Source: Alphaproteobacteria bacterium
GTDB taxonomy: Bacteria > Pseudomonadota > Alphaproteobacteria > MPNO01
DNA: 64,000 bases
Reading direction: 5' to 3'
NCBI GenBank assembly: GCA_964291675.2
Contig: OZ219865.1
Coordinates: forward strand, 192,001-256,000
The notes under the pieces are model-generated. The model had not been told where the DNA came from. It did no database searches and worked only from the letters and a program-made list of their open reading frames with translations. This document shows, in pieces, positions 273 through 35,037 of the stretch (positions are counted from its first letter, which is position 1; each line of letters begins with the position of its first letter). Both the position numbers and the translations under genes were made by a program.

Positions 273-1722
273 GGTCGTGTCCCCAGACGTGGTGTAGGAG
301 CTCTGGCCTTGGTTTGTAGCTGTGGGTAAGCAGCGCGCCGCCGCGACCGCCGCGAGTCTGGCGGCGGCGGGCTGCTTATCCACAGCGGAGGCCATCGCGG
401 TTCCGGTTTAGGGTTGGGTCGTGCAACGCCAACCCGAACCTGAGGAGGAACCGCGATGACCGACGACATGATGGCCCTGCGCGGGCTTTTGGAGAAGAGT
501 TCCGACGCCGATCTGCTGCGCGAGATGATCGGCTTCTCGGCCGAGCGTCTGATGGCGCTGGAGGTGGAAGGGCTGACCGGCGCCGCCCATGGCGAGCGCA
601 CGCCGGAGCGGATCACGCAGCGCAACGGCTACCGCGAGCGGGCCTGGGAGACCCGCGCCGGCACGGTGGCGCTGAGGATCCCGAAGCTCAGGACGGGGAG
701 CTACTTCCCCGGCTTCCTGGAACCGCGCCGGATGGCCGAGAAGGCACTCACGGCGGTGATCCAGGAGGCCTACATCCAGGGCGTGTCGACGCGCTCGGTC
801 GACGACCTGGTGCAGGCGATGGGGATGTCGGGCATCTCCAAGAGCCAGGTGTCCAGGCTGTGCGCCGAGATCGACGACAAGATCGAGAGCTTCCTCGACC
901 GGCCGCTGGAGGGCGAGTGGCCCTATCTGTGGCTGGATGCGACCTATATCAAGATGCGCGAGATCGGGCGCATCGTCCCGGTCGCGGTGACCGTCGCGGT
1001 GGCGGTCAACGACCAGGGCCGGCGCGAGGTGCTCGGCATGGCGATCGGCCACTCCGAGGCCGAGACCTTCTGGACCGCCTTCCTGCGCGCGCTGACCGGC
1101 CGCGGGCTCAAGGGCGTCAAGCTGGTGATCTCCGACGACCACAAGGGGTTGAAGGCCGCCGCGACCCGCATCCTCGGCGCCACCTGGCAGCGCTGCCGCA
1201 TCCACTTCATGCGCAACCTGCTGGCCCATGCCGGCCGTCAGGGAAGGCGCGTCGTGTCTGCCTTCGTCGCCACCGCCTTCGCCCAGGACGACGCCCAGGC
1301 CGCGAGCGCCCAGTGGCGCCTGGTCGCCGACCAGCTCAGGCCCAAGGCGCCCAAGCTCGCCACCCTCATGGACGACGCCGAGCACGACGTCCTCGCCTAC
1401 ATGACCTTCCCCAGGGAGCACCGAACCAAGCTCCACTCGACCAACCCCATCGAGCGGGTCCATGCCGAGATCAAGCGCCGAACCAACGTCGTCGGCATCT
1501 TCCCCAACGAAGACGCCGTCACCCGCCTGGTCGGCGCCATCCTGCTCGAGCAGAACGACGAGTGGGCCGTCGCAAGGAGATACATGACACTGGAATCCAT
1601 CGCTCAGACCAGCGACAATCTCACCGTCAAGCCGCCCGCCGTGGCAGCCTGACCCTACCGGCCCAACACGCCGGATACCGCGATCGGCGCCGGGCTCTTA
1701 CACCACGTGGCGGGACACGATC
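273..1722 (+). mobile_element. IS256-family insertion sequence, apparently complete (1450 bp)
   Basis: Imperfect terminal IRs (left ggtcgtgtccccagacgtggtgtaggagctc; right rev-comp gatcgtgtcccgccacgtggtgtaagagccc); 8-bp direct repeat caactgcc at 265-272 and 1723-1730. Confidence 0.95.
456..1652 (+). CDS. IS256-family (Mutator-type DDE) transposase
   Basis: Motifs [51 protein letters not shown]; RBS gaggagg upstream. Confidence 0.97.
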
Positions 1723-4700
1723 CAACTGCCTGTGCAAGGACCGAAAGGCCCGGCGGAGGTGGCACGCTCGCCAATGTACGATAAACACGTAGTCGCAGTT
1801 CGGAGTACTGATCCATCAAACTCGCTAGGCGTCTGCTCATGTCCGATGCGCCGCCTCTATCCGCTCGATCCAACACACCTCCCGCTATCAGGTCTACAAG
1901 ACGCGACGCAGCGGACATGGTTCCTCGGCCGCACACGGAATCACGCCATTCCCGGCTTGAATATAGCTGAGGCTCATTTTCTGCGAGCTGAAAGAGCGCG
2001 TCTTCTGCATCGTCTCCGGGCGCATATTGTAACGCGCCTACCACTTCTTCCAACACAGCCATTGTCCAGTGTGGTTGGGGTAGGTCTTTTAGGATGTCGA
2101 TAATCTCCGAAGGGCCATTTGTGAACGGAAGAGCCATCAGCAAATCCTGTAGCTCACGCCCCTGCATGAGAATCCAAGGTTGTTCTTCACCGGCTTCTAA
2201 CAACTCCGCAATGCCTTGCTTTACCAGTTCTACATCGATTAGCTCCCCAGAGAGGATGAGGTTGGTCAGGAGTGGCCCACGGCTCCGCCAGTCAACCATG
2301 TCGAGCAGGGCGTCAAATAAGTCTCTTCTCACGCCGTGTGGAAGGCCAGCAGCAACAGTGCCGAGGGCGACTGCACGATTCTTTGCGTCGTCCGTAGCCT
2401 TTTCAGCAATCAGCTTCTCCACGGCCGAGAAGATGGCATCGGCTTCCGCAGATGACACGTTTGGCTCTTTTTCTCTCGCTTCTCGCTTCTCGCCGATTCG
2501 AGAAAAATCCCTCGACCGTATCCACCACATGTCGTCGCGAGGTTCGTTTGTCTCTCGCCATTGACCTGCGAGTACCAATGCAGCTAGTTCGCCAAAGTCT
2601 TCATCAAACAGATAACTTTTCATCAACTCCGTTGTCTCAGGACAACGAATTGCAAGAAAGGCATTTTGGTACCAATTGATCCAAGACATTCGTGCTTCGT
2701 TTGTGGCGATACCCTCGCGGTAGCCCTCTGCGTGCGCTTGCTCCCTGAATGCTCGCCAGCGTCGCAATTCCTCGTTCAGCAGCCGCTCCAAGACTCCAAG
2801 CAGTCGCGGTGATGGCGCATGACCTGCTAGCGATGCCACCGAGGCGAGCTGCTCACGTGTTGAATCAGGCGAAGCTAGCAGCGCCTGCCCCCAGTCCTCT
2901 ACATACTTCGCAATTGTGTCGTGGGCTTCGACATTGAACGGCCGACCTCCCCTGTGAACTCCATCCCCTTGACGACGAATTAAATTCGTGAACTCACGTA
3001 TCTGGTGATTGCTCGCGTCCTTGGATCGCAAGCGGATTGCAGTAAGTAGATGCGTCGTCTTTGCGGATCCGATACGGCCCCTTATGACACTGTGGCGCTT
3101 AGCGGCCTCCTCATCATGCCTTCCATCGCGATCTTGCACCCGTTCTTCCAACTCCAACATCCGGTCAATCAACCGGCCCACCGCTTGAGGCCCGAGCAAC
3201 GACGCCGCGACATCGGCACGGTAATCGCGACGGCCCTCGGAGAGTGCAATGTCCAGAATGGCCTCATCCTCCACTGCAAACTCGGCTTCGGCCATAAGCT
3301 CGGCCGCCTGACCTGGAAGTTCGAGGCCCGCGCGCACGCGTGCAAGGATGCCTTCTGCCACGGCGCGCGGGAAGCGCTCACTCGCACCGTGAATGAGCTT
3401 TGCGACACCGTCGTTTCTTTCCGTGATTTCAGCTTCCGTAATCGCTATCGCTAGTTCAGCCTCTGTGTCGTCACCTTCCGGGCCATTGAGCAACGCGGAG
3501 ATTCGATCATAGGGCGGGAATCCCCGCGCCCGGCTCCGCTCACGTGCGGCCGCGAGCCTCTCTGCGACGCTACTTTTGGTTACGCGGTCGAATAGGTTCC
3601 TCTTTACCAATTGATCAAACACTTCGTTTTCAGCATCATGCAGCACGTCTATGATGTGTCGATCGGCCCGTCGGAACGCGAGCGCCTCGGCTACCGCTAC
3701 CCTCACTTCGGCTGCAGGATCAGTCTTGGCTACCGCCGCCGCGAGATCCAGTCCGTCCAGTCCACTGTCAAAAACTATTTCGGCAAGAATGCCTTCTCGA
3801 AGTTTTGCTGGGAGTGCTCGAATTCTGTCAGCCCCTTCGATACCTAATATTGAGGGTCGAAAGCGTCTGCTAGAACGTAGGGAGGCAATCTGGACTTGAT
3901 CGTCTACGTTCGTCATCAGTGGCCAGACGTACTCAAGGAAATCCTCGTGACCCGAAGTGAGCATGAATCTGACGGCATGATCGACCGTTCCGCGGGTATG
4001 CCAGCAATCAACAAAGCCCAGAACGTTCGATTTCACGCGCTGCCACACTGCGTCAGTGGATCGGTAGATCATTTCCGCGGAGAGGATAGGGTCCAGTTCA
4101 AGGGCAACAAGAATGGCTTCGCCGCAGGCCGCTTGCTCCGCCTCGTCTCCGCGCGCCAGTCGTTCACATGCAAATAGAATGGGTTCTTCCCACGCTCGCT
4201 GATCAAGAACGTCTGCCTTCAACTCACCGAGTGAGCGCTCATCGCTGACGCTCTGGCGCATTAGATTTTCCACGAAGTGAGAGGCATACCATTCCTGTAT
4301 TTGCTGGTGTTGGAACGAATAACCATGTGGTTTGTCGATTCTAATCAGAACATGGTGATCGACAAATATCTCAAGCACCTCACGGGGCTCGGGTCTGGCC
4401 GAAATCTGACCTTCCACAACGAAGACCTCACTGCTGTCCGAAATGGCGCTGCGTGCGGTGACCTCGACAATGGTTGTGTTCGCCGCGCGGGTCGCAGTAG
4501 CTCCTAAGTCTGCCAGGTACCGTTCGTGTAAGCCGTGCGTGACCTGTCTCAGCGCCTCAGCTTTCGGGTAGTCCCCTTCGTGAACCGCAACGAAATGTCG
4601 CAGAACCTCTTCTTTCGTCGACGGGATTGGTTTGCCTTCGGGAAGAGAGAGTAGCGCACTTAAGTACAAGGGGATCGTCACAAGTTCGCGCACGCCGGGC

Positions 4701-5731
4701 GTGCGCCACGCTTCATCTAGCAAGCGCTCGCCCGAGTCGCCACGCAACGCCCGAGCGATTTCAATCTGCTCTGTCTCGTTGAGCGATGGGAGAGATACCC
4801 GTTTGCCATCGATCGGAACATCAAGTGCTTGCTTGCGAGTCGCTATTAGCAGGTTGAGATCGGGCAGCTCCATTTTCAGCCGCCTAAGCTCGGCTGCCGC
4901 ACGTTGGCGTGAGTCGGCGTCCAGTTCGTTCCAGCCGTCTAGCAGCAGGAACACACCGGGGTTGGCTGCAATGCGTCGGAATTCGTTTTCTGCAACGCCT
5001 CGGAAGCTAGCTCGCTCCAAGATTGATTCGATCAGCGACAAGTCGCTCGTCGACCACTCGCCAAGAGGAACTACGATTGGCGATCCATACCCGTTCTCCA
5101 AGACTGCTTCAGCCAATTGAAACACCGCGGTCGTCTTGCCCATCCCGGGTTCGGCGACGACGACTAGATCGTCAAGGGTTGCAAGCGCCGCTGCCAGTCC
5201 TGATGTGCTGACTCGTTCATCAAGGCCATCCACTCGAAACGTCCTAGAGATTGCATTGGCCGACCAGGTGTCCGCGCGGCGAAAGGCTTCTAGATTTTTG
5301 ACGGCGACAACTCGCAGGACTTCATACATCTCGTCATCCCCAGGCTTGGGGATTGCACCCTCTTTCATCGGATCGAAATACGTGACACGGCGCCATGACC
5401 AAGCACTTGCGTTCCGCTTCCATTCGTGAAGTAACTCAACGGTGAACATCGGGTCTTGGCTATCCACAAGCCTGGCGTGTGTCTCACACAACCAAACTCC
5501 GTTACGTGCGGACTTTCGATCTTCTGGCGACATATCGGAATCGTATCGGGGGCCGCCAGGAGCCGCGGCGCATATGTGAGCAGCGACCCCAATATCGTTT
5601 ACGCCGTCGCCTTCTGAATTTGAACCGACGGTAGGCCGACGACACCAGGGGCAAGAACAGTGCCAGCCAGCTTGCTTTCCGATCTGGCGTCTTGTCGGCT
5701 CTGTAAAATTATCTCGCCTAGAAGTGCTCAT
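1723..5731 (-). pseudogene. HNH endonuclease-NACHT/STAND NTPase (NLR-like putative defence protein), interrupted near its C-terminus by IS256
   Basis: N-terminal CSCPWC...AAHICAAAPGGPRYD...NGVWLCETH (HNH-type); Walker A AEPGMGKTT; Walker B LLLDGWNE; PLYL and FQHQQIQEW winged-helix-like motifs; long helical C-terminal region; visibly lower GC than the backbone; start taken at MSTSRRDNF. Confidence 0.85.
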
Positions 5732-5794
5732 TCGGTATCCACTTGCTCGCACAGCACACTGTCAACTGCTCCCCAACGGGCCTTATCGGCGCCG

Positions 5795-7834: not shown

Positions 7835-8073
7835 GGCTTCTCCGTTTCGTCGAGCAGGGCGATTATCCATGTACATGCCACTGCGTACTGCAAATCGAGC
7901 CGCGTGGACGATGGCCTGGACCGCCCACGAGGTCGCAGACCGTCCGACAACCGCAAGTCGAGGCCCACCCAGTGGCGACAAGCCTCCTCGAAGCACGGCT
8001 CGGCGAAGTGGCGCGGCTGGACACGGTCGAGTTCATCCGGGCGCCGTTCCCGCCCGGTGTCCACCATCGGTTA

Positions 8074-8320: not shown

Positions 8321-8705
8321 CGGATAAGCATCCGGCCTGATCCGCTGGCCGAGCTCATGGCGAGGCACACTGCAAGCGCCACCGAAGATGCTCCCAACAA
8401 CCGCGTCGAATCCTGTCCCACCCTGAACAGCCAAGGCTTTCCCGGCCGGTTCCTTTTCTTCCGATTCTCGCAAATTTGCGCGGGAAGCCAGTTCGTTTAG
8501 ATTGATAAAATATATTCTGAGCAGTTAACAAATCGGCAACAGTGATACGTCGTGGCGTTCGCGCCGCCGCGATCCCGGTCGCCCGCCGTCGACGACCGCC
8601 GCCATCGGTCCTGCCGCCTGCGGGGACGAGCTCACGCCCCAACTGTCGGATTTTCGTTTGCCTTTGACACTGCCGAGCGAATTGCAAGGGGAGAAGTACC
8701 TGGAC

Positions 8706-9428
8706 ATGGAAACGAGGGGACGGAAGAACGCGGCCGGGGATTGGTTGCAATCGGAGATTCTGGACCGCGGCGTTTCGGCCGCGATGATCGTCATGGCCTT
8801 CGCGGGGTTTGCCGTGGGGTTCGCGGTCAGGAGCCTTCCGATCTTCGATTTCGAGACGGGAGCGTTCTGGACTGTGGTGGTTGCGGTCGCGCTTTTTCTG
8901 TCGTTCGGCATGCTCCTGGTGCGGCTCCGGCGCATCGATGCGACCTGGATCCCTGGATTGCGGGCCGAGCGCCGGGTGGGGGACGTCATCGAGCATGCCC
9001 TCGCGCGGCCGGGCTGCGCGTTCGCGCATGACGTCAAGGAAGCCCTCGGCGGTTCGGGCAATGTCGATCACGTCGTGATGACCCCGGTGGGGGTTTGGGT
9101 GGTGGAAACCAAATCGAACTGGCTCGACAAGCGACACTTTCCCCCGGCGCTGCGTCAGGTCGCCGGGAATGTGAGCCGCGTCCGCCGCCATCTCGACACG
9201 TCTCTTCCGGTTCGCGGTGCGCTGATCATCGCCGACCGCTGGGATCGTTCGCTGGAGTCGCGGCACGACTGGAACGGAGAGCCGGTGACGGCGTTCGGTC
9301 TCAAGACGTTCTGGCACCTGCTGCGCGCGGAGGGCGCGCAAGTCGGAGACGGCGGGTCCGCACAGGCTACGGCGAGGGTCGAAAAAGCCGTATGGGACCT
9401 CGGTTCCACCCGCCATCTGGGGTCATGA
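8706..9428 (+). CDS. NERD (nuclease-related domain) protein with two N-terminal TM segments
   Basis: GLRAERRVG...HDV...NVDHVVMTPVGVWVVETKS; hydrophobic stretches at the N-terminus. Confidence 0.85.
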   Translation: METRGRKNAAGDWLQSEILDRGVSAAMIVMAFAGFAVGFAVRSLPIFDFETGAFWTVVVAVALFLSFGMLLVRLRRIDATWIPGLRAERRVGDVIEHALARPGCAFAHDVKEALGGSGNVDHVVMTPVGVWVVETKSNWLDKRHFPPALRQVAGNVSRVRRHLDTSLPVRGALIIADRWDRSLESRHDWNGEPVTAFGLKTFWHLLRAEGAQVGDGGSAQATARVEKAVWDLGSTRHLGS

Positions 9429-10366
9429 ACCGGTGGCGGTGGCGGATTCGTCGACGGATGCGGCGGACGAGGCGGTTCGCGAGGATCCTGATCCTGGCCG
9501 CGATCGCGGCGGGCGCGGCTGCCGCGCTGCCGACTTTCGACCGGAGCGGCATCGGGGCCTCGTCGGGGCGGTTCATCGAGGCTGTTGAACAAGAGGTCGG
9601 TCCAGCCGCGGACCGCGTTGCGGAATGGCTGGAACGACGGGCGCGCGCGACCGGCGACCGCATCGCCGCGCTCACCGGCGAATTCGGCGACACGGCCGAA
9701 ACCGAACGGGAACACCGTGTTCGCGTCTACCGCGGCCCCCCGAACCGGTCGCGCCCGGCGTTGTCGGGCCCGGCGCGGGCTATCGACGGCGACACGCTCG
9801 ACGTGGCGAACGTGCGGGTTCGACTCCACGGCATCGACGCGCCGGAGAGCGCCCAGCGCTGCCGGACCTCCGGTCGGTACTGGCTTTGCGGGCGGGAGGC
9901 AACGCGGGCCCTGGCGGCCCGGATCGGCGGCCGACCGGTGGCATGCGCGGAGCGCGACCGGGACGGTTACGGGCGGGTCGTGGCGGTCTGCGCCGTCGAC
10001 GGGCTGGACCTCAACGAATGGATGACGGCCGAGGGCTGGGCCTTCGCCTACCGGCGCTACTCCGGCGACTATGTCGCCGCGGAGTCGCGTGCGCGCGCGG
10101 CGCGGCGGGGCATCTGGCGCGGCGAGGTCGTGGAGCCTTGGGAATGGCGCCGCGGCAAGCGTCTTCCGGGTTCCGCGCCAGCCGCGCGGCGGGACGGTGG
10201 GCGATGCCGGATCAAGGGGAACATCGGCAGGGACGGAAGGCGCATCTACCATGTGCCGGGCGGGCAATATTACGGCCGGACGCGGATCGACACGTCGCGG
10301 GGCGAGCGCTGGTTCTGCTCGGAGCGCGAAGCGCGGGCGGCGGGATGGCGGCGGTCGAACCGGTGA
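9425..10366 (+). CDS. Thermonuclease (SNase) family protein with C-terminal Cys/His domain (ExoI-like architecture)
   Basis: IDGDTLDV, VRLHGIDAPE, DRDGYGRVVA, GWAFAY, IKGNI...IYHVPG...ERWFCSE; ATGA overlap with the NERD stop. Confidence 0.9.
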   Translation: MNRWRWRIRRRMRRTRRFARILILAAIAAGAAAALPTFDRSGIGASSGRFIEAVEQEVGPAADRVAEWLERRARATGDRIAALTGEFGDTAETEREHRVRVYRGPPNRSRPALSGPARAIDGDTLDVANVRVRLHGIDAPESAQRCRTSGRYWLCGREATRALAARIGGRPVACAERDRDGYGRVVAVCAVDGLDLNEWMTAEGWAFAYRRYSGDYVAAESRARAARRGIWRGEVVEPWEWRRGKRLPGSAPAARRDGGRCRIKGNIGRDGRRIYHVPGGQYYGRTRIDTSRGERWFCSEREARAAGWRRSNR

Positions 10367-10800
10367 GGACGTCCGTCGACGGATGGCCCGATCCCCATTG
10401 GCTCCTATCCAGAGACGCGGATATCGTATGAGCGGTTTCGTCGCGATTCCCGATATCGCGACCAGTTTCCTGCCCGCTGCGCGGGTCTCCACTTGCCCGC
10501 CTTCCACGGACAAGGGTGACTTCCCTGCCAAACCGGGCGTCTCCATGCTTCACCTGCCGCCCTCCGATAGGGGGGCTGCTCCGGGTAGCAGGCCTCGGCC
10601 TTAAACCTCGCGCAGGGTTCGCCCACTCGAGTTGGCCGTGCAACCCGGCTCGCGATGACCCGCCTCGCGATGAGGCCGGCGCCGCCGATCGGCCGTCGAC
10701 GCCGATCCCCTCCACGCGTTGCGATGGCGGGCGCAGGCGCTCGCCCGCATGCGGGATCTCACGGTCCCCGCATTCGACCCTTGCCACCCGGGCGATGCAG

Positions 10801-11229
10801 TCAGTTGCCGGGGTCCAGCTTCGCGAGGACCAACCGCAAGACCTCGACAATCGTACTTTGTTCATCGACTGCGAAGGCCCTGAACACCGTGATCAGCTCA
10901 CCCTCACAGGCGTCCTCGCTCCCTTCACTCAAAACCCGCCGTTCCGATCCCGGATGCGGCGAGCTCCGCGCGATCCGATCGTCCGCCCCCTGCCGTGTGC
11001 CTTTCGGGTGCTGCCCGTTGGCGCCGTTCCGTCTCAGCCATTCCTCGATCAGACCGAACTTCCCGAGCAGGCGAAGGTTCGTCGCTGAAGGCATCGCCAC
11101 GCCTCGTTCCCATTTCCCGATCGTTTTCTCCGAGACGCCCAATTTGCTTCCGAGACTCTCCAGCGTATCCGCGCCGGCCGTTCGCCTGCGTCGAATTTCC
11201 TCGCCGAGTGCGCGATCGACCTTGCCCAT
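10801..11229 (-). CDS. XRE-family HTH transcriptional regulator
   Basis: TLESLGSKLGVSEKTIGKWERGVAMPS; RBS aaaggag before ATG 11229. Confidence 0.85.
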   Translation of the reverse strand: MGKVDRALGEEIRRRRTAGADTLESLGSKLGVSEKTIGKWERGVAMPSATNLRLLGKFGLIEEWLRRNGANGQHPKGTRQGADDRIARSSPHPGSERRVLSEGSEDACEGELITVFRAFAVDEQSTIVEVLRLVLAKLDPGN

Positions 11230-11410
11230 CGGTATTTTCTCCTTTCGAGACAAGCGATCTCGCAAGCTGGCAGCCGGTCCGGTCCTCGCGACCGGCACTC
11301 TCGGACGCCCGATCTGCGTACACAGAGCGAGCTGCGGCGCTCGCCGCCGGGAGAGCCGGTAATTCATGCGCTGTTGGTCTCTATCCCGCTGAAATTGCGC
11401 GACTATTTCG

Positions 11411-11456
11411 CAAAAGTAACCGACTGGTTACCTTCCCGGCCGAAACGTTACTTTTG
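11411..11456. promoter_or_regulatory. 46-bp inverted-repeat site between the divergent XRE and recombinase genes (operator or att site)
   Basis: caaaagtaac (11411-11420) / gttacttttg (11447-11456) perfect IR; nested gtaacc-gact-ggttac (11416-11431). Confidence 0.6.
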
Positions 11457-11567
11457 GGTGGTGGACGGTCGCGGCGTCCTCCACAAATCTTCCCCGAGGT
11501 CGCTTCGCTTCGCGAACCGCCGCCGCTTCGGCGCAGCGGCGGCGTACACACAAGGGGGAAGAATTCA

Positions 11568-12125
11568 GTGGCCTGCGATCCCGACCCGAACACCGTCCCG
11601 CCTCCGGGAGGACCGTCCCGGAAGCGCCCCGTCGCGGGCTATCTCCGCTCCGCGACCGAGCTCGAAGGAGAGACCCTCCGCGAGCAGCTCGAAGCCATCG
11701 TCCGGTACGCGCGCGCCCATGGCATGCAGCTCATTCGGGTCTATTGCGACGAGTGCGGGAGCGGCCTGCGGATCGACGGCCGCTCCGGCCTCGGGCAGAT
11801 GCTTCGCGATATCGAGAGTGGGGACGGCGACTTCGACGCCATTCTGTTGTCCGATCCCAGCCGCTGGGGCCGCTTCCATATCGCGGACGAAAGCGCCTGC
11901 CTTGAATACGCCTGCCGCGCGACAGGCATCGCGGTCCACTATTGCGCCGAGGGATCGGGCGACGACGGAACGCCGTTTTCGGGCATCGCAAAATCTCTGA
12001 AACGCCGCATGGCCGAAGAGCACGGGCGTGAAACGCTTGCCCGCGGGCACCACGCCGCCCAGACCGGGGACGGAGATGCCGCGGCGCCCGCGGGCGGAAC
12101 GGCACCGAAGGCGAAGATCCGGTGA
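11568..12125 (+). CDS. Resolvase-domain-only serine recombinase paralog lacking the catalytic Ser
   Basis: GYLRSAT versus YLRMST in the next gene; DPSRWGRF retained; GTG start after aagggggaag; GTGA overlap with the LSR. Confidence 0.8.
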   Translation: MACDPDPNTVPPPGGPSRKRPVAGYLRSATELEGETLREQLEAIVRYARAHGMQLIRVYCDECGSGLRIDGRSGLGQMLRDIESGDGDFDAILLSDPSRWGRFHIADESACLEYACRATGIAVHYCAEGSGDDGTPFSGIAKSLKRRMAEEHGRETLARGHHAAQTGDGDAAAPAGGTAPKAKIR

Positions 12126-13699
12126 CCGGCGACCCCGATCCCAAGGGCGACTCGAATCCCGAACCGGCGAGGCCCCTTCGCCGCGCCGTCGCCTACCTCC
12201 GGATGTCTACCGAGCTCCAGGAATATTCGACTGAGAACCAGCTCGCGGCCATCGAGAAATACGCCGCCGAGAACGAGATGGAGCTCGTTGCCACCTATTC
12301 GGACGAGGCGAGAAGCGGCCTGCGATACGAGAACCGGCCCGGCATGCAGCAAATGCTGGCGGATGCGCAAAGCGCGGATGCCGGTTTCGATACGATCCTC
12401 GTTTACGACATAAGCCGATGGGGCCGGTTTCAGGATCAGGACGAGGGCGCCGCCCTCGAATTCGCCTGTAGAAAGGCCAGGGTTCAGGTCCACTACTGCA
12501 TGGATCAATTCGTCAACGACGGCAGCCCGATGTCGACGGTGATGAAGAGCCTCGGGCGATATGCGGCCGCCGATTACAGCAGCAAACTCTCGGCAAAGGT
12601 GTTCGCCGGCCAGTGCCGGCTCACCGAGCGCGGCTACCGCCAGGGCGGCATGGCGGGCTACGGGCTGCGCCGGATGCGCATAGACCAGAAAGGAGAGCCG
12701 CAGGGCATTCTCGACTGGGGCCAGCGCAAGAGCCTGCAGACCGACCGGGTGATCCTCGTGCCCGGACCGGAAGAGGAAGTCGAGACCGTCCGGTGGATGT
12801 ACCGCGAGTTCATCGACGGAGGCAGGCTGGAAGGCGAGATCGCCGCGGCTCTCAACGAGAAGGGGATCGCGACGGATCTCGGCCGGCCCTGGACGCGCGG
12901 CACCGTCCACCAGGTTCTGACCAACGAGAAATACATCGGCAACAACGTCTTCAACCGGCATTCCTACAAGCTGAAGAAGACGCACAAGGACAACCCGCCC
13001 GAGGAATGGGTCCGGTTGGACGGCGCCTTCGAAGCGATCGTGGATCCGCGACTGTTCTTCACCGCCGAGGGCATGATCCGTCAGCGCAACCGCCGGTTCT
13101 CCGACGACGAGATGATCGACCGGCTGGAAAAGCTCCTGAAGAAAAAGGGCTTCCTCTCCGGTTTCATCATCGACGAGGCCGACGACATGCCGTCGAGCGG
13201 CTGTTACGCCTCGCGCTTCGGCAGCCTGACGCGCGCCTATTCGCTGGTCGGCTTCACCCCCGACCGGGACTGCCGCTACATCGAGATCAACCGGACGCTC
13301 CGCCAAATTCACGCGCGGGAGGTCGCCAGGGCGATCGCCGAAATCGAAAAGCTCGGCGGCGCCGTTTCCCAAGACGCGGCGACGGACCTCCTGACCGTGA
13401 ACGATGAGTTCACCGCTTCCATCGTCATCGCCCGCTGCCGGCACACCAAGGCCGGTTCCCGGCGCTGGAAGGTCCGCCTCGACACCGGGCTCGCCCCCGA
13501 CCTGACGGTCGCCCTCCGGATGGACGACGCCAATCAAGCCATCCTCGACTACTACCTCCTGCCGCTTTCCATTCTCGACACGAACCGCCTCGGGCTCGCC
13601 GAAGAAAACGGCCTGATGCTGGACGCCTTCCAGTTCGACACCCTGGACCGTTTCTTCGCCATGGCAGAGCGGGCCCAGATTTCGGAGATCTCACAATGA
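12122..13699 (+). CDS. Large serine recombinase (resolvase + recombinase domains)
   Basis: AYLRMSTELQ, YDISRWGRFQ, GGMAGYGL, VLTNEKYIG, FEAIVD motifs; 525 aa. Confidence 0.93.
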   Translation: MTGDPDPKGDSNPEPARPLRRAVAYLRMSTELQEYSTENQLAAIEKYAAENEMELVATYSDEARSGLRYENRPGMQQMLADAQSADAGFDTILVYDISRWGRFQDQDEGAALEFACRKARVQVHYCMDQFVNDGSPMSTVMKSLGRYAAADYSSKLSAKVFAGQCRLTERGYRQGGMAGYGLRRMRIDQKGEPQGILDWGQRKSLQTDRVILVPGPEEEVETVRWMYREFIDGGRLEGEIAAALNEKGIATDLGRPWTRGTVHQVLTNEKYIGNNVFNRHSYKLKKTHKDNPPEEWVRLDGAFEAIVDPRLFFTAEGMIRQRNRRFSDDEMIDRLEKLLKKKGFLSGFIIDEADDMPSSGCYASRFGSLTRAYSLVGFTPDRDCRYIEINRTLRQIHAREVARAIAEIEKLGGAVSQDAATDLLTVNDEFTASIVIARCRHTKAGSRRWKVRLDTGLAPDLTVALRMDDANQAILDYYLLPLSILDTNRLGLAEENGLMLDAFQFDTLDRFFAMAERAQISEISQ

Positions 13700-14586
13700 C
13701 CGACACCATTACGATCGAGAGGATCCCGATCGAGCGCATCGTCGTACTCAATCCCCGGGTCCGGGACGCGAAGAAATTCGCCGAGATCGTCGACAGCATC
13801 GGGAAGGTCGGCCTCAAGCAGCCCATCAAGGTGAGCCGCACTCGGGGCGCCGACGGCGAAGTCGCCTACAACCTGGTCTGCGGACAGGGCCGCATGGAGG
13901 CTTTTCAGGCGCTCGAACAGACGGAGATTCCGGCCATCGTTACCGACCTGTCCGAACAGGACAGCCTGGTCTCGGGCCTTGTCGAGAATGTCGCCCGGAG
14001 CAAGCCTCTTCCGGGCGACCTGTTCCGGGCGATCGGCGATCTTGTCGGACGCGGCTACTCCGACGCGAAGATCGGCGCCAAGATCGGCTATTCGGCTACC
14101 CATGTCGGGAGAATCCGCCGCCTCCTGAAAGCCGGCGAGGAACGGCTGCTGATTGCGGTGGAAACCGGAAAGATGCCGCTGCATGTCGCCGTCGCCATCG
14201 CGAAGGCAGAAGACGGCGGGGCGCAGGAGGTCCTCGACAAAGCATATAAGGGCGGCGAATTGACACTTAGCCAAATGCCGCGCGCAAAGAGTGCGATCGA
14301 GCACCGCGAACGATACGGCAAAGCGCTAAAGCGTGACACTACCGGCGATCGGAAACCGGCCTCGAAGGCGTACGATGCGCTCACCCGGAGACTGAAGGAG
14401 GCGGTCAAGAACCACGGTGCGCTGATCGAGAGCGCCGATACCGCCTCGGAACATCTGAAGATTCTCATGCAGGGCCTTCGCACGCTTCTGTCCGAACACC
14501 ATTTCCGGACCCTCCTGCGTGCCGAGCAGGTGCAGACGATGCCGGCTCCTCTGGCGCGCCTCGTCGAAGCCCGGGAGGAGACCTGA
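13696..14586 (+). CDS. ParB/RepB-like protein 1
   Basis: NPRVRD...SIGKVGLKQPIKV...LVCGQGRMEAF...LVENVAR followed by an HTH. Confidence 0.85.
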   Translation: MTDTITIERIPIERIVVLNPRVRDAKKFAEIVDSIGKVGLKQPIKVSRTRGADGEVAYNLVCGQGRMEAFQALEQTEIPAIVTDLSEQDSLVSGLVENVARSKPLPGDLFRAIGDLVGRGYSDAKIGAKIGYSATHVGRIRRLLKAGEERLLIAVETGKMPLHVAVAIAKAEDGGAQEVLDKAYKGGELTLSQMPRAKSAIEHRERYGKALKRDTTGDRKPASKAYDALTRRLKEAVKNHGALIESADTASEHLKILMQGLRTLLSEHHFRTLLRAEQVQTMPAPLARLVEAREET

Positions 14587-14587
14587 C

Positions 14588-15484
14588 ATGGCCGGCAAGG
14601 TGACTATCGGGTTCGAGCCGGAGAGCGTGACGATTCCCATAACCGACATTCTGCCGCTGAGGCTGGTCGACGATACCGCCCGCAAGCGCCACAAATTTCG
14701 TCAGATCGCCGCGTCCATCCGCGAAATCGGCATCGTGCAACCGCCCATCGTGGCACGCCGGTCCGACGGAAAGCACAAATACCTGCTTCTCGACGGCCAT
14801 CTCAGAATGGAGATTCTGAAGGACCTCGGTATCGACGAAATCGCCTGTCTGGTCTCTCTCGACGACGAGGCTGTCACTTTCAATCGCCAGGTGAACCGCC
14901 TCTCGCCGCTCCAGGAGCACAAGATGATTCTGAAGGTCATCGAGCGCGGCGTTCCCGAGGAGCGCATCGCGCAGGCGCTGAACGTCAATGTCGCGACCAT
15001 CCGCGCCAAACGGGACCTTCTCAATGGCATCTGTCCCGAGGTTGCTGCACTCCTCAAGGACAAGCACTGCCCCATCAACTCTTTCCAGGCGCTCAAGAAG
15101 GTGGAGCCCCTGCGGCAGTACGAGATCGCGAAGACGATGGTCGCGGTCAACGACTACTCGGTTGCCTACGCGAGGGCTCTCGTCTCGGCGAGCTTGCCGG
15201 ACCAACTGGTGAACCCCGGCAAGGCCAGGAAGCACAGAAAGGTCTCTCCGGAGGAAATCGATCAGATCGAACGGGAGCTGGCCAACCTCCAGGGTGACGT
15301 CGAACGGATCGAAGAGACCTTCGCAGCCGACCATCTGAATCTGGTGCTGGCCACGTCGTATGTCCGTTCGTTGCTCCGCAACGCCCAGATAACGGAATAC
15401 ATGGAGACGTATCACCGGAACCTTCTCGAGGAATTCCGGACGATCTGCGAGGCGACGGCGCCGATGGCGGAAGCCGCCGAATAG
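14588..15484 (+). CDS. ParB/RepB-like protein 2
   Basis: SIREIGIVQPPIV...LLLDGHLRME...NRLSPLQEHKMI; RepB-type helical C-terminus. Confidence 0.85.
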   Translation: MAGKVTIGFEPESVTIPITDILPLRLVDDTARKRHKFRQIAASIREIGIVQPPIVARRSDGKHKYLLLDGHLRMEILKDLGIDEIACLVSLDDEAVTFNRQVNRLSPLQEHKMILKVIERGVPEERIAQALNVNVATIRAKRDLLNGICPEVAALLKDKHCPINSFQALKKVEPLRQYEIAKTMVAVNDYSVAYARALVSASLPDQLVNPGKARKHRKVSPEEIDQIERELANLQGDVERIEETFAADHLNLVLATSYVRSLLRNAQITEYMETYHRNLLEEFRTICEATAPMAEAAE

Positions 15485-15488
15485 CACG

Positions 15489-15511
15489 GGTTCGGCGCCG
15501 GGCGCCGAACC
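15489..15511. terminator. GC-rich hairpin just after the recombinase operon
   Basis: ggttcggcgcc-g-ggcgccgaacc perfect IR; no U-tract. Confidence 0.4.
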
Positions 15512-16135
15512 GACGGTCGATCCGCCACGGCGGGGCAGGGCGATGGATCGGCCAGAATGGGGACCCGGACCCGACAAGCGCGGGGACCGCGGGAGACGCC
15601 GCACTGTGGGGCGGATCGAGCGCGGCGGTGGGGATGGCGGCGAACCCGTTCGGAGCCCACCAGGCCGGCCGTCATAGGGCCGGCCGAGAGGGCGGTCGAT
15701 CCGCGGCCGCCCTCGCCCCCGGAATCGAACACGGTCGGGAATGTCGTCCTGGCGCTGCCCGAGAGTTCGGACTGCCGCCGAAGGCAGGCAACTGGCAGCC
15801 GTTCGCCATCACCGTCCCTCCATCGGCATCTCGAAGCGGGTAGCCACGGCCGCATGGCCCAGCCCCGACTCGGCCGCCGGCACGCTTCCGGTACACCGCG
15901 CTTCCGTGCGCGACCCGCGACCTCCGACGACACGCGATGGCCCGGCCGCCGTTTGCCCCCAATATCCGACGGCCCCCTGCCCGAAGTCTCGCCCGGTCGC
16001 TTTCCACACACGCAACCGGCTTCGTCCCCCTGCCGCAGCATGAAGGAGAGAGGAGCGGGCCGGCGTCGGGGCGCGGTGAATCGGGCTCGGAGGATGTCCG
16101 GGCCGCGCCGCCTCCCCGCCATTCGGAGCATGCCC

Positions 16136-17161
16136 ATGACTTTGCCCGAGACCATCTCCGCCGACTACACGCTGCGCCCGAGCGAGCTCGCCGAGGTTCT
16201 CGCCACCCTGGTCGAGGCCCGCCAGCCGACCATGCTGTGGGGCGGGCCCGGAACCGGCAAGAGCCAGGTCTCCAACCAGACGGCCGACCGCCTCGCATAC
16301 ACCTATCTCGACATCCGCGGCCCGCTCCTCGATCCCGTGGACCTGCGCGGTATCCCCTGGCGCGACGAGTTCGGCCGCACCCGCTGGGCGCCGCCCGCCT
16401 TCCTTCCCCCGACCGACAGCACCGAGCAATACCTCATCAACCTGGAGGAGCTTCCTTCTTCCGTGCCCATGGTGCAGGTCGCCCTGTTCCAGCTCTGCCT
16501 GGAACGCCGGATCGGCGAGTACGAACTGCCTCCGGGCGCAGCGATCATCGCCTGCGGCAACCGCGAGCAGGACCGCTCGATCGTGCACCGCATGCCCGCC
16601 CCGCTCGCCAATCGCTTCGTCCATCTGGAGATCCGGGTCGACGCGAGGGACTGGCTTGCCTGGGGAGCCGCGAACGGGATCGCGCCGGAAGTGCTGTTCT
16701 TCATCGAGCTGGAACCGGACCTGCTTCACGGCTTCAATCCCCAGTCGAAGGAGCACGCCTTCCCGAGCCCCCGGAGCTGGGAGTTCGCTTCCAACATCGT
16801 CAAGAACCGCAACGGCCTCGATGCCGGTGTCGAAAGGGCGCTGTTCCGGGGCACGGTGGGCGAGGCCGCGGCGGTCGAGTTCACCTCGTTCCTGAAGGTG
16901 TGGCGCGAGCTGCCCCACCCGAGGGCCGTCCTCGACGATCCCGGCAACGCCGACATTCCGGAGAACGCCAGCACCCTGATGGCGCTCTGCGGCTCCCTCT
17001 ACCGGATGGCCTCCGACGTCAATCTGGACGCCATTGTCACCTACGCGACACGGCTTCGACGCGAAGTCGGCGAGTCGCTCGTCGGCGCCTGCGTGCGCCG
17101 CGAGCCCGCGCTCCAGCGCTCGCCCGCCTTCATCCGCTGGGCGGCGGCAAAGACGCAGTGA
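16136..17161 (+). CDS. MoxR-like AAA+ ATPase
   Basis: Walker A LWGGPGTGKS, DPVDLRGIP, Walker B YLINLEEL, ACGNR, PLANRF, FPSPRSW. Confidence 0.9.
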   Translation: MTLPETISADYTLRPSELAEVLATLVEARQPTMLWGGPGTGKSQVSNQTADRLAYTYLDIRGPLLDPVDLRGIPWRDEFGRTRWAPPAFLPPTDSTEQYLINLEELPSSVPMVQVALFQLCLERRIGEYELPPGAAIIACGNREQDRSIVHRMPAPLANRFVHLEIRVDARDWLAWGAANGIAPEVLFFIELEPDLLHGFNPQSKEHAFPSPRSWEFASNIVKNRNGLDAGVERALFRGTVGEAAAVEFTSFLKVWRELPHPRAVLDDPGNADIPENASTLMALCGSLYRMASDVNLDAIVTYATRLRREVGESLVGACVRREPALQRSPAFIRWAAAKTQ

Positions 17162-17225: not shown

Positions 17226-18125
17226 ATGGACCTCAACCGCGACGCAATGCTGGTCGGGCTGCACATCGCCGCCTGGTCCGGCCGGCTCTACGACCGCCAG
17301 GCGAGCGACCATGTCGCCGTCGCCCACGAAGCCTCGACCGCCGCCGGGCGCTACAACAAGCGCCTGCTGCCCAAGGCCGCCTTCGCCGCCCTCACCGCGA
17401 CCATGAGCGAGGCGAGGGCCAAGCACTATGCCAACTCGCTTCCCTGGGACGACAAGGGCGCGCGGCTGCTCACCGTGGCCAACTACGAGCACTACACGGA
17501 GCTCATGGACGGGTTCCGGGAGCGCGTGGTGCGCCAGCGCGCCCGCTTCATCGAGGATTACGACGACTACATCGACCAGGCCCGGCTCGACCTCGGCAAG
17601 CTCTTCCGCATCGAGGACTATCCCTCCAAGGAAGACCTCCAGGGCAAGTTCGCCATCCGCTACCGCATCACCCCGGTGCCGGACGCGGACCATTTCATCG
17701 CCCAGCTCGCCTCCGACGACACCGAGCGGGTGAAGCGCGACATCGAGAGCCACATCGAGGAGCAGCTCCACGGTGCGGTGGGCGACCTCTACCGCCGCTT
17801 CGGCGAGGCGATCGAACGGGTCTCGGAGCGGCTGCGGGAGGACGACGAGGGCAAGCCGCTGGTGTTCCGCGACACGATGATCTCGAACATCCGCGACCTA
17901 GTGGACGTGGTGCCGCGTCTCAACATATTCGGCGACGAGACCCTGGCGCAGCTCTGCGCGCAGGTGAAGGAGAAGATCGCGAGCGTCGAGCCGAACGCGC
18001 TTAGGCCATCGAAGACCTTCGACCCGGCGGCCCGGGCCCAGGTCAAGCGCGACGCCGACGCGCTCGCGGAGAAGTTCGCGGGGTATTTCGGGGCGCGGAC
18101 CGAGCCGGTGCGGGAGGCCGCCTGA
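17226..18125 (+). CDS. Hypothetical helical protein (DUF3150-like, phage/ICE type)
   Basis: RBS gaggagg; WSGRLYDR...GRYNKRLLP...SLPWDDKGARLL; lies between the AAA and VWA genes. Confidence 0.65.
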   Translation: MDLNRDAMLVGLHIAAWSGRLYDRQASDHVAVAHEASTAAGRYNKRLLPKAAFAALTATMSEARAKHYANSLPWDDKGARLLTVANYEHYTELMDGFRERVVRQRARFIEDYDDYIDQARLDLGKLFRIEDYPSKEDLQGKFAIRYRITPVPDADHFIAQLASDDTERVKRDIESHIEEQLHGAVGDLYRRFGEAIERVSERLREDDEGKPLVFRDTMISNIRDLVDVVPRLNIFGDETLAQLCAQVKEKIASVEPNALRPSKTFDPAARAQVKRDADALAEKFAGYFGARTEPVREAA

Positions 18126-34656: not shown

Positions 34657-35037
34657 TCAGCCGTGGCGTGCGAGCCACCACCAGGCGATCCAGACCGGCA
34701 GGCTGAGCGCCACCGCCCCGACCGCGATCGCGAGCGGTCCGAGCAGACCCGCGAACACCGCCACCGGGATGGTCACGGCGCCCAGCCCGACACAAGCCGC
34801 CCACGCCCCGCGCCGGTAGCCGAGGCGCCAAAGGCGGCGGCAGCCGAGGGCCAGCGGCAGACCGCAGGCCGCGACCGGCGCAAGCGATCCCAGCGCCGCG
34901 AGCAACTCCCCGGGCCCTCCGAACGCGGCATGGGCCGAGCCGAACCGCACCGCCGCCTGCGCCACCACCCCGGCCGGCAGCCAGAGCAGCGCCAGAAGCC
35001 AGAACCCGAGCCGCGCCATCCAATTCCGCCCGTCCAT
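34657..35037 (-). CDS. Small multi-pass membrane protein
   Basis: Three to four hydrophobic segments (FWLLALLWLPAGV; VAVFAGLLGPLAIAVGAVALSLPVW). Confidence 0.65.
   Translation of the reverse strand: MDGRNWMARLGFWLLALLWLPAGVVAQAAVRFGSAHAAFGGPGELLAALGSLAPVAACGLPLALGCRRLWRLGYRRGAWAACVGLGAVTIPVAVFAGLLGPLAIAVGAVALSLPVWIAWWWLARHG

Follow-up and report, generated by a model that had tools for sequence, protein, structure and literature searches.

Introduction

Serine integrases are major genome-engineering tools, and both their choice of site and the direction in which they act are thought to rest on a zinc-ribbon/coiled-coil module and on small directionality factors. The targets of the TnpX and TndX transposases are reported to resemble the element ends. 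In serine resolvase synaptosomes (res sites II-III of Tn3/gamma-delta, Sin with HU), recombinase-fold subunits build or control the complex without cutting.

The cassette described here comes from an alphaproteobacterial contig, of which a stretch of 64,000 nt, hereafter the window, was analysed. Its recombinase has the Y-x-R-x-S N-terminal domain, helix E and PF07508 in common with large serine recombinases and integrases (phiC31, Bxb1, A118, TP901-1) and with the TnpX/TndX transposases. In contrast to serine integrases, it has no zinc ribbon or coiled coil, but a helical region, a domain that models as PD-(D/E)xK-like and a tail; it is coupled to two ParB-like genes, no small directionality-factor gene was recognised in the cassette, and in the clade of the window a dead paralog precedes it. 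As in the CTP-dependent clamps ParB, RepB, Noc and KorB (ParABS, repABC), both ParB-like proteins have the ParB N-domain and align in their middle region with ParB/Noc, and ParB2 possesses a full RepB-type C-terminal region. Unlike ParABS and repABC, however, the cassette has no ParA/RepA on its contig and no identified parS, carries G-Q-G-R and G-H-L-R in place of G-E-R-R, and has two diverged tandem ParB paralogs coupled to a recombinase.

The dead paralog is similar in concept to the resolvase regulatory subunits, as a non-cleaving subunit of recombinase fold. The latter are the same active protein at accessory sites, whereas the cassette has a separate gene for a truncated copy in which Ala is fixed and which lacks DNA-binding domains. 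A conserved structured, non-coding element lies at the end of the cassette, as do the bridge RNA of IS110 and the omega RNA of IS605/IS607 elements. It differs from these in having neither homology to them nor an Rfam match, and is nearly invariant, with no variable guide loops.

With a probability of roughly 45%, we interpret the cassette as a self-contained unit of ~4.9 kb (window about 10790-15720: regulator, palindrome, operon and RNA-like element) that encodes a machine for site-specific recombination, in which ParBs assist a serine recombinase and a dead subunit regulates it, the reaction being one that we infer.

Architecture of the cassette

The reading frames of the window include four coupled genes (Table 1), and the tightly coupled module that an earlier note on this DNA had described is real. 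The short gene overlaps the recombinase gene by 4 nt (GTGA), the recombinase gene overlaps ParB1 by 4 nt (ATGA), and a 1-nt gap separates ParB1 from ParB2, the start of which was set by alignment. The last two junctions were also found in related loci with ParB genes read intact.

Table 1 Features of the cassette (window coordinates)
Feature	Position	Strand	Description
XRE-type helix-turn-helix regulator	10801..11367	-	188 aa; Pfam HTH_3
Operator-like palindrome and third half-site (candidate)	11416..11451		Pattern match; relaxed pattern in 4 related loci
Short gene (dead paralog)	11568..12125	+	185 aa; GTG start
Large serine recombinase	12122..13699	+	525 aa; Pfam Resolvase and Recombinase
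ParB1	13696..14586	+	296 aa; ParB N-domain
ParB2	14588..15484	+	298 aa; degenerate ParB N-domain, RepB-type rest
Structured element, most likely RNA	15557..15720	+	Covariation and near-invariance; directly 3' of ParB2

Nucleotide homology of the window with the related loci L023 and L024 extends over 10788-15722, beginning at 10788-10793, just past the stop of the regulator gene. This gene is divergent from the operon and lies inside the conserved unit in the window and in a subset of related loci; homologues are found upstream in 9 of 19 loci, on the same strand in one of them (L038). The divergent regulator, which the earlier note did not include, belongs to the unit. Intergenic to it and the operon is a 16-nt palindrome, GTAACC-N4-GGTTAC, accompanied by a third GTTAC half-site, with a single exact match in the window. 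A relaxed form of this pattern occurs upstream of the short gene in L023, L026, L038 and L040, and all three half-sites are altered together in L038. Palindrome and half-site look operator-like and represent a candidate protein-binding site.

The element after ParB2, which had been missed before, is a near-invariant sequence of ~170 nt with six covarying or invariant helices followed by a GC hairpin. Its 33 pairs are 97.1% paired, and compensatory cells number 101, as compared to 29 +/- 4 after shuffling and 14-18 in slid controls. Of 47 metagenome loci with 900 nt or more of upstream sequence, 43 have ParB2 just before the element, and 25 of 27 with 3500 nt or more have a full recombinase upstream. 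No Rfam covariance model matched window 10500-16400 at E up to 1, and complementarity to operon leaders did not go beyond that of shuffles. The element is most likely an RNA in operon sense.

Recombinase and ParB pair

The recombinase matches PF00239 (catalytic domain, 6e-22) and, after helix E, PF07508 (residues 217-322, 1.2e-22), and Y25, R27, S29 and Q33 are invariant in 34 recombinase sequences. Its top Foldseek matches are serine integrase-DNA complexes, with the match to serine integrases extending over only about 330 columns, i.e., the N-terminal and recombinase domains. For the C-terminal 200 residues, the model shows another fold: helices at about 325-410, then an alpha/beta domain of PD-(D/E)xK-like type (about 415-500), then a tail. 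Pfam recovers Resolvase and Recombinase only and no CxxC pair was seen in the sequence, so that the reported lack of an evident CxxC zinc ribbon holds by Pfam, by sequence reading and by the modelled fold. By its catalytic and PF07508 domains, the protein is assigned to the large serine recombinases, as a member that by sequence is without zinc ribbon and coiled coil. The best structural match of the C-terminal domain is I-Ssp6803I (E 1.4e-4, TM 0.39/0.52), followed by Hjc, Eco15I/NhoI and SPARDA nuclease domains; the domain thus models, with modest TM scores, as PD-(D/E)xK-like, that is, restriction-endonuclease-like. No classical D...(D/E)xK motif or conserved nuclease triad was identified in it.

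The best solved relatives of ParB1 and ParB2 are Spo0J and Noc. ParB1 has conserved N-P-R-x-R, G-Q-G-R and E-N-x-A-R motifs that are box-I-, box-II- and box-III-like, a central region that aligns with the middle part of solved ParBs, and, near its C-terminus, a conserved motif that is predicted to touch the recombinase tail. ParB2 combines a degenerate ParB N-domain (D-G-H-x-R) with full-length RepB-type middle and C-terminal regions. Both proteins had been described as having altered Arg motifs, and these variants are indeed conserved: G-Q-G-R of ParB1 aligns with G-E-R-R of Spo0J, with G63, G65 and R66 invariant and Q64 nearly so in 32 sequences, and G-H-L-R of ParB2 aligns with G-E-R-R of Noc, with G-H-x-R invariant in 16 sequences. 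Because both motifs depart from G-E-R-R, dependence on a nucleotide is no more than a possibility.

Distribution and genomic context

Among 400 evenly sampled Alphaproteobacteria, ~24 loci in 22 genomes carry the trio of recombinase, ParB1 and ParB2. Only two of these loci have the paralog, namely those with a recombinase at least 85% identical to that of the window. The neighbourhood survey that had been suggested earlier thus identifies the trio without paralog as the common, widespread form and the paralog as the mark of one clade. The trio was also found on plasmids of Alpha-, Beta- and Gammaproteobacteria, and in Proteobacteria it is widespread across plasmids, conjugative elements and islands.

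In Agrobacterium, a discrete 3.9-kb unit is present in two distinct contexts, bounded on either side by a 19-nt direct repeat, and a related plasmid without the unit has one copy of the repeat at the same place. The target of this unit resembles the element ends, as reported for TnpX/TndX. A generic repeat scan equalled the repeat in 8 of 100 shuffles, and its weight therefore derives only from its coincidence with the homology breakpoints. For the window-type unit, no flanking repeats were found above chance, and the contigs of four runs contained neither a circle nor an empty-site joint as a recombination product.

It is conceivable, if unlikely, that the cassette is a maintenance module whose recombinase resolves multimers of the replicon that carries it. 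The ParB pair would mark or compact a centromere-like site, hitch-hike on host or plasmid segregation without a ParA of its own, and confine recombination to one molecule. Resolvase-plus-accessory stability loci exist, for example parCBA of RK2, and the trio resides on DNA that has circular forms throughout, namely large plasmids, chromids and conjugative elements. Also in line with this proposal are the match of ParB2 to the whole RepB profile (149.5 bits) and the staphylococcal-nuclease homologue that lies upstream in the window and beside another trio. However, none of the genome's matches to the ParA profiles PF13614 (0/3) and PF01656 (0/6) is on the contig, which extends to the whole contig the earlier statement that the window has no ParA, and no ParA is annotated beside the trio in four plasmid loci examined. 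Moreover, seven of seven related copies of this conjugative-element family, including one in the window's own genome, do without the trio; their homology to the window begins only at about 16085-16124, in keeping with a cassette that is a discrete unit. The cassette sits in variable cargo spots and not in backbones, the recombinase domain is of the integrase type, and no res-like or parS-like repeat set was identified for the cassette.

Defence and toxin-antitoxin genes abound around the cassette, which lends some weight to readings other than recombination. Neighbours include a NACHT NTPase, NERD and SNase in the window, AbiEii and Fic in C58, CcdAB and a restriction enzyme in Roseomonas, and HNH and Dnd in Methylibium. 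In metagenome loci, about 9 of 20 downstream neighbours scanned are of defence or toxin-antitoxin type; the downstream genes there include HsdM, PLD nuclease, C5 methylase, RES, a ParB-methylase fusion, NOV_C, AbiEii, a Cas4-like nuclease, HipA and WYL. A function in defence or inter-element conflict would agree with this context and with the PD-(D/E)xK-like fold of the recombinase, and PMC10853773 describes conflict roles for the ParB/Srx superfamily. The ParB pair would then sense or load on invading DNA, for instance at ParB-type sites of rival plasmids or phage-plasmids, and bring the recombinase, together with its nuclease-like domain, to break or scramble that DNA, with the paralog as a check and the RNA as cofactor or decoy. 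We hold this to be more unlikely still. PADLOC 2.0 returned no family for paralog and recombinase and only weak MTase_II N-domain matches for the ParBs, the C-terminal domain has no identified nuclease triad, and we know of no serine recombinase that serves as a defence effector. Recombinases often adjoin defence cargo in any case, because both ride on mobile DNA.

Predicted link between recombinase and ParB pair

A co-fold of recombinase, ParB1 and ParB2, a type of check that the earlier note had named, reached an ipSAE of 0.77, as compared to 0.31 for the best of three controls. Of 80 solved complexes with which the tool was calibrated, 58 attained this mark, as did 2 of 110 mismatched pairs; our co-fold differs from that calibration in that it relied on alignments of our own and contained three chains. 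At least 65% of contacts are shared between runs, and the partners have a pLDDT of 73 or more. In the predicted complex, the C-terminal domain and tail of the recombinase lie against the C-terminal regions of both ParBs, the contact on ParB2 being through C-terminal helices (recombinase residues 427-430, 460-461, 479, 481-484, 498-499, 502-503, 510, 513-521 and 523-525; ParB1 239-291; ParB2 238-261 and 290). The ParB1 interface takes in several conserved C-terminal positions. A physical link of the recombinase with the ParB pair is hence supported in silico. The docking domain and tail occupy the usual place of the zinc ribbon and coiled coil.

ParB-family proteins are often transcriptional regulators, and the two ParB genes might act independently of the recombinase, as KorB-like regulators or silencers of neighbours that merely travel along, with the contact an artefact of modelling. 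The co-fold is a prediction, and the control with ParB2 replaced still gave the value of 0.31. We nevertheless consider this proposal quite improbable, as trio gene order and the 4-nt/1-nt junctions are kept in every intact locus examined, at recombinase identities from 35% to 88%, the predicted interface falls on residues that are conserved in the recombinase tail and at the C-terminus of ParB1, and both partner-replaced controls scored 0.00.

A conserved dead paralog

The short protein is 44% identical to recombinase residues 1-159 and has Resolvase as its sole Pfam match. Its Y-L-R-S-A-T aligns with Y-L-R-M-S-T of the recombinase, which puts Ala at the nucleophile position, and Glu stands in place of the recombinase's downstream Gln. 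The earlier characterisation as a catalytic-domain-only paralog with Ala therefore stands with respect to kinship and Ala, but the protein is not strictly catalytic-only: about two thirds of helix E is retained, and each end bears a variable tail. The residue at the nucleophile position is Ala in 20 of 20 loci, and Y-L-R-S-A is present in 117 of 120 homologues among the matches listed, with the canonical Ser motif in none. Ser one position before is conserved in the family; Cys60 and Cys63, two extra Cys beside the catalytic Asp, are invariant, together with other positions, among 30 aligned short proteins, while identity goes down to 53% across the family.

In the tree, the short-paralog family is monophyletic (SH-aLRT 100), and the recombinases that accompany it form one clade (SH-aLRT 100) nested within the trio recombinases, with 10 of 17 clade-fixed changes in the catalytic domain. 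The paralog is directly upstream of the recombinase and then ParB1 in 19 of 19 genome loci; ParB2 is next in 16, and the other three are two contig ends and one disrupted copy. The view of the short gene as a decaying pseudogene, left over from a truncated recombinase and evolving neutrally, would fit its tails (dN/dS about 1) and a whole-gene value of 0.48 above the 0.24 of the recombinase (0.23 in its N-domain), but deserves next to no credence given this linkage, the monophyly, the invariant Ala and Cys residues, a gene that is open with constant architecture in 20 of 20 loci, and a core with a median dN/dS of 0.39 and no pair at or above 1 (0/189). The dN/dS check proposed earlier thus speaks against neutral decay, and the conservation pattern indicates a family of catalytically dead serine-recombinase N-domains with a core under purifying selection.

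Proposed mechanism

For the site-specific recombination machine that we favour, we infer the roles of the ParBs, the paralog and the RNA, as well as the reaction, as follows. The recombinase would be the only catalyst, as its Ser nucleophile is intact. It would have lost the zinc-ribbon/coiled-coil module for site recognition, synapsis control and directionality, and its PD-(D/E)xK-like C-terminal domain and tail would instead attach to ParB1 and ParB2 at their paired C-terminal regions. The ParB pair, one member with an N-domain that has ParB nucleotide-site motifs and one degenerate, could load on or bridge DNA, and could also be the switch for where and when the recombinase acts. The dead paralog, with the catalytic fold and most of helix E and without DNA-binding domains, may join the recombinase catalytic domain as a non-cleaving subunit, either as inhibitor or as controller of direction or assembly. 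The reaction would most likely be insertion or excision of the cassette or of its mobile carrier DNA, with resolution as the next option.

A fuller version, which we regard as doubtful when all its parts are taken jointly, is a four-part machine. In it, the recombinase without zinc ribbon would use its nuclease-fold domain and its tail as a physical link to a clamp of ParB type, heterodimeric and gated by nucleotide, by which sites are chosen or bridged, with the near-invariant RNA from the end of the operon as a cofactor and a genetically fixed dead subunit that sets direction or keeps the enzyme off.

Implications

The combination of a recombinase, two ParBs, an RNA and a dead paralog was not found described in the full-text literature searched, nor among the papers listed under the annotation names. 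Both the cassette and its RNA occur commonly on plasmids, conjugative elements and islands with a cargo of defence and toxin-antitoxin genes, yet we found no study of the combination. If the proposed mechanism is true, a ParB-type clamp pair that replaces the zinc-ribbon/coiled-coil module and directionality factors would represent another way to control a serine recombinase, and would tie ParB biology to recombination. With its conserved, catalytically dead subunit, the cassette would offer a case from nature in which this enzyme class is regulated at the level of subunits.

The four-gene operon and its short paralog

Here, we confirm that the window carries a tightly coupled module of a short resolvase-like gene, a large serine recombinase and two ParB genes (the latter three hereafter the trio). 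The interpretation placed on this module by the earlier note, in which the ParB pair may supply DNA bridging or directionality in an NTP-modulated system and the dead paralog would act as a dominant-negative or directionality subunit, is partly supported, namely as regards a functional paralog and a recombinase-ParB link predicted by co-folding. Gene coordinates and junctions (a GTGA overlap, an ATGA overlap and a 1-nt gap, in the order short gene, recombinase, ParB1, ParB2) are as claimed. The short gene is indeed a catalytic-domain paralog of the recombinase (44% identity to its residues 1-159) with Ala at the nucleophile position, the Pfam matches of the recombinase include no zinc-ribbon family, and where solved Spo0J and Noc read G-E-R-R in alignment, ParB1 has the altered Arg motif G-Q-G-R and ParB2 has G-H-L-R. 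The reported absence of ParA extends to the whole contig, on which neither PF13614 nor PF01656 has a match. A promoter and terminator scan gave no promoter-like sites and two terminator-like sites versus 4.0 expected.

Coordinates of the features discussed (positions in the window unless a locus is named)
Feature	Position	Strand	Remarks
IS256/Mutator-type transposase	456-1652	+
NACHT-domain NTPase	1655-5752	-	1365 aa; GC 0.56 vs ~0.7; adjoins the transposase
NERD-domain gene	8658-9428	+	upstream of cassette
Staphylococcal-nuclease-like (SNase) gene	9500-10366	+	upstream of cassette
Homology with loci L023/L024	10788-15722		divergent HTH gene through structured block
Short gene	11568-12125	+	Pfam: Resolvase only
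Recombinase	12122-13699	+	Pfam: Resolvase + Recombinase
ParB1	13696-14586	+	Pfam: ParB_N + RepB
ParB2	14588-15484	+	Pfam: ParB_N + RepB, RepB profile matched over full length
Structured block	~15557-15720	+	directly after ParB2
Conjugative-element segment	16137-33007		MoxR-like ATPase, DUF2201/VWA, long ParB, RadC, Strawberry notch
tRNA-Gly(GCC) call	34927-35014	-	ARAGORN; 88 nt
Second copy of conjugative-element segment	L099 (G000:C2:36000-55999)		other contig of the same genome
19-nt repeat, first context	L004:4454-4472 and 8336-8354
19-nt repeat, second context	L076:4004-4022 and 7886-7904
19-nt repeat, plasmid without unit	L077:9460-9478		single copy, equivalent point, after AbiEii gene

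The paralog is functional. A search limited to proteins of 101-324 residues gave 183 matches at E <= 1e-5; among the 120 listed, 117 carry Y-L-R-S-A, one Y-L-C-S-A and one Y-L-R-S-P, the remaining one is N-terminally incomplete, and the canonical Ser motif occurs in none of them. Residues Y25, L26, R27, S28, A29, C60, E62, S65, G66, R99, W100 and R102 are invariant in 30 aligned members, and two Cys adjoining the catalytic Asp are specific to this family. In all 19 genome loci found by a family profile search, a recombinase 73-87% identical to that of the window lies directly downstream of the short gene and is followed by ParB1; ParB2 is present in 16, and of the other three loci, two run into a contig end and one is a disrupted copy. 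One additional copy of the short gene precedes a recombinase with an internal deletion and a broken ParB2. In a quick maximum-likelihood tree of 65 N-domains, all 20 short proteins form one clade (SH-aLRT 100, stem 1.28), as do the 19 associated recombinases (SH-aLRT 100), which are nested among trio recombinases. Between recombinases with and without the paralog, 17 positions are fixed differently, ten of them in the catalytic domain.

Selection on the family was assessed by Nei-Gojobori medians over non-independent pairs, with dS probably underestimated because GC3 is near 0.9. Median dN/dS was 0.39 for the core of the short protein (residues 20-155; 0/189 pairs at or above 1) and ~1 for its tails, as compared to 0.23 for the recombinase N-domain, 0.22 and 0.42 for the N- and C-terminal parts of ParB1, and 0.30 and 0.33 for those of ParB2. 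The core value and the conserved, monophyletic family speak against neutral decay of the paralog, which the earlier note had named as fatal to its proposal. A nested insertion, in which a second cassette split an older one and left the 5' part of the latter as the paralog, is rejected: nothing of a corresponding 3' part lies downstream, and the family shows both conservation and monophyly.

Between loci, dS of the recombinase (~0.25-0.6) was consistently below that of the ParB genes (~0.6-1.0; 13696-15484) for the same pairs, and some groupings conflict between recombinase and short-gene trees; intra-cassette recombination, or additional constraint acting on the DNA of the recombinase gene, is possible. 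Three of the 120 listed short-family proteins (P0115, P0116, P0118) have an N-terminal extension of ~50 residues that is helix-turn-helix-like and has no Pfam match; these may be variants that bind DNA, or their starts may have been called too far upstream.

The trio is widespread in its paralog-less form. An even draw of 400 alphaproteobacterial genomes contains ~24 loci, in 22 genomes, at which a recombinase gene has ParB genes downstream; the paralog is present only at the two of these loci whose recombinase is at least 85% identical to that of the window. Full-length relatives of 50-60% identity were found by tblastn on plasmids of Agrobacterium, Sinorhizobium, Mesorhizobium, Sphingobium and Roseomonas as well as Methylibium, Burkholderia, Ralstonia, Variovorax and Pseudomonas. 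In four annotated plasmid loci, a gene named 'recombinase family protein' precedes two genes of ParB/RepB type, for which 'RepB C-terminal domain-containing' is the usual name; the junctions overlap, and the flanks differ from locus to locus. At plasmid trio loci, 0/67 records cover at least 80% of the short protein, which matches recombinase N-domains only.

Recombinase architecture and predicted ParB contact

The AlphaFold model of the recombinase (34-row alignment, mean pLDDT 81) comprises a catalytic domain with a long helix E, a recombinase domain, helices at 328-410 and a beta-rich domain at 415-493. Foldseek against the PDB aligned it to serine integrase complexes over ~330 columns only. 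Modelled alone (pLDDT 85), the C-terminal 201 residues best matched the homing endonuclease I-Ssp6803I (E 1.4e-4, TM 0.39/0.52), followed by Hjc, Eco15I/NhoI N-domains and SPARDA nuclease domains. The predicted domain is thus of a PD-(D/E)xK-like fold, at modest scores; no classical catalytic motif was found in it, and in the Protein Atlas it falls into unnamed or 'recombinase family' clusters only.

ParB1 and ParB2 are probably bound to the recombinase, to judge from three-chain co-folding of recombinase residues 176-525 with both proteins. Three runs scored 0.75, 0.77 and 0.77, as compared to 0.00 and 0.00 in two controls with a replaced partner and 0.31 with ParB2 replaced; the mark applied is passed by 58/80 solved complexes and 2/110 mismatched pairs, in a calibration on single pairs with the tool's own alignments. 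The runs share at least 65% of contacts, with partner pLDDT of at least 73. Predicted contacts involve recombinase residues 427-430, 460-461, 479, 481-484, 498-499, 502-503, 510, 513-521 and 523-525, with L508 and R517 included in the recombinase side of the interface, and residues 239-291 of ParB1 and 238-261 and 290 of ParB2. The ParB1 segment covers conserved C-terminal positions, of which F270, L274, E277 and P283 are invariant. As no solved recombinase-ParB complex is known to us, a score owed to a memorised structure is unlikely; the contact is a prediction.

A structured element after ParB2

Beyond the stretch delimited by the earlier note, ParB2 is directly followed by a structured block of ~170 nt. 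To judge from sequence comparisons, this block belongs to the cassette. It is single-copy in the genome, has no match in Rfam, and is >90% conserved across an alignment of 15 loci, at which ParB2 identity to the window protein is 54-90%. It follows ParB2 in 16/19 four-gene loci (one more has a partial match). In Sphingobium it also comes after trios that have no paralog, in Niveispirillum after a ParB2 that is truncated, and in Marinibacterium it lies ~1.85 kb 3' of the recombinase gene; two rearranged plasmid loci have it without the trio. It is absent from C58-type trios. A pattern scan of metagenomes yielded at least 120 stretches. Among the fetched loci, ParB2 ends just 5' of the block in 43 of the 47 with at least 900 nt upstream, ParB1 is found in 29 of the 34 with at least 1900 nt and a full recombinase in 25 of the 27 with at least 3500 nt; a separate paralog is present in none. 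The block as part of the backbone of the bordering conjugative-element family is rejected, given its absence from 7/7 trio-less copies.

Across 76 distinct sequences, chosen by a conserved pattern so that conservation is inflated, the 33 pairs of the block are 97.1% paired. Compensatory change at 12 pairs amounts to 101 cells versus 29 +/- 4 in shuffles and 14-18 with slid partners. G-U pairs are common and there are few A-C pairs, which places the structure on the sense strand of the operon, an asymmetry that favours RNA over the alternative of sense-strand single-stranded DNA, e.g., a transfer origin. Folding energy is ordinary (z -0.9 plus strand, +0.18 minus strand), and pairing of the putative RNA to short-gene or recombinase leaders was no better than in shuffles (z -1.4 to +1.7, 15 loci).

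Borders, mobility and neighbourhood

Homology of the window with the independent loci L023 and L024 runs from a divergent HTH gene through the block. Flanking repeats of this unit did not exceed shuffles, and contigs of four sequencing runs showed no informative joint, a part without coverage counting neither way. Comparison of Sphingobium plasmids made a cargo hotspot visible and did not reveal the cassette's own ends. On Agrobacterium plasmids, a 3.9-kb unit of a small divergent gene and the trio is common to two different contexts, with a 19-nt direct repeat (CCTKGANNGGRRTYGAACC) at both ends. It looks like a site-specific insertion, in two contexts only; the repeat is a candidate attachment site because it bounds the unit in both and is single at the same place in a related plasmid without the unit. 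The recombinase as core integrase of the bordering conjugative-element family is rejected, as 7/7 trio-less copies do without it.

The window begins with the IS256-type transposase and the low-GC NACHT NTPase, followed by an IS3 fragment, NERD, SNase, the cassette and the conjugative-element segment. The NTPase may be a separately acquired, NLR-like defence gene. A homologue of the SNase (53% identical) lies beside the unrelated trio locus L048. The second copy of the conjugative-element segment (L099) is without the cassette, and its homologue of the window gene at 17229-18125 is 92-94% identical. The tRNA-Gly call within the conjugative-element region is of unusual length and may be false or an attachment-site remnant. 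In 20 metagenome loci, genes 3' of the cassette include restriction-modification, toxin-antitoxin and nuclease genes, consistent with a mobile unit's cargo as well as with a role in conflict.

Placement of the cassette

Full-text literature searches gave nothing on the combination of serine recombinase, ParB/RepB and dead paralog, including by annotation names; passages of PMC10853773 and bioRxiv 10.64898/2025.12.11.693706 have no bearing on the trio. The cassette differs from serine integrases in having no zinc ribbon and from partition systems in having no ParA, and is best filed as a variant of serine-recombinase systems.
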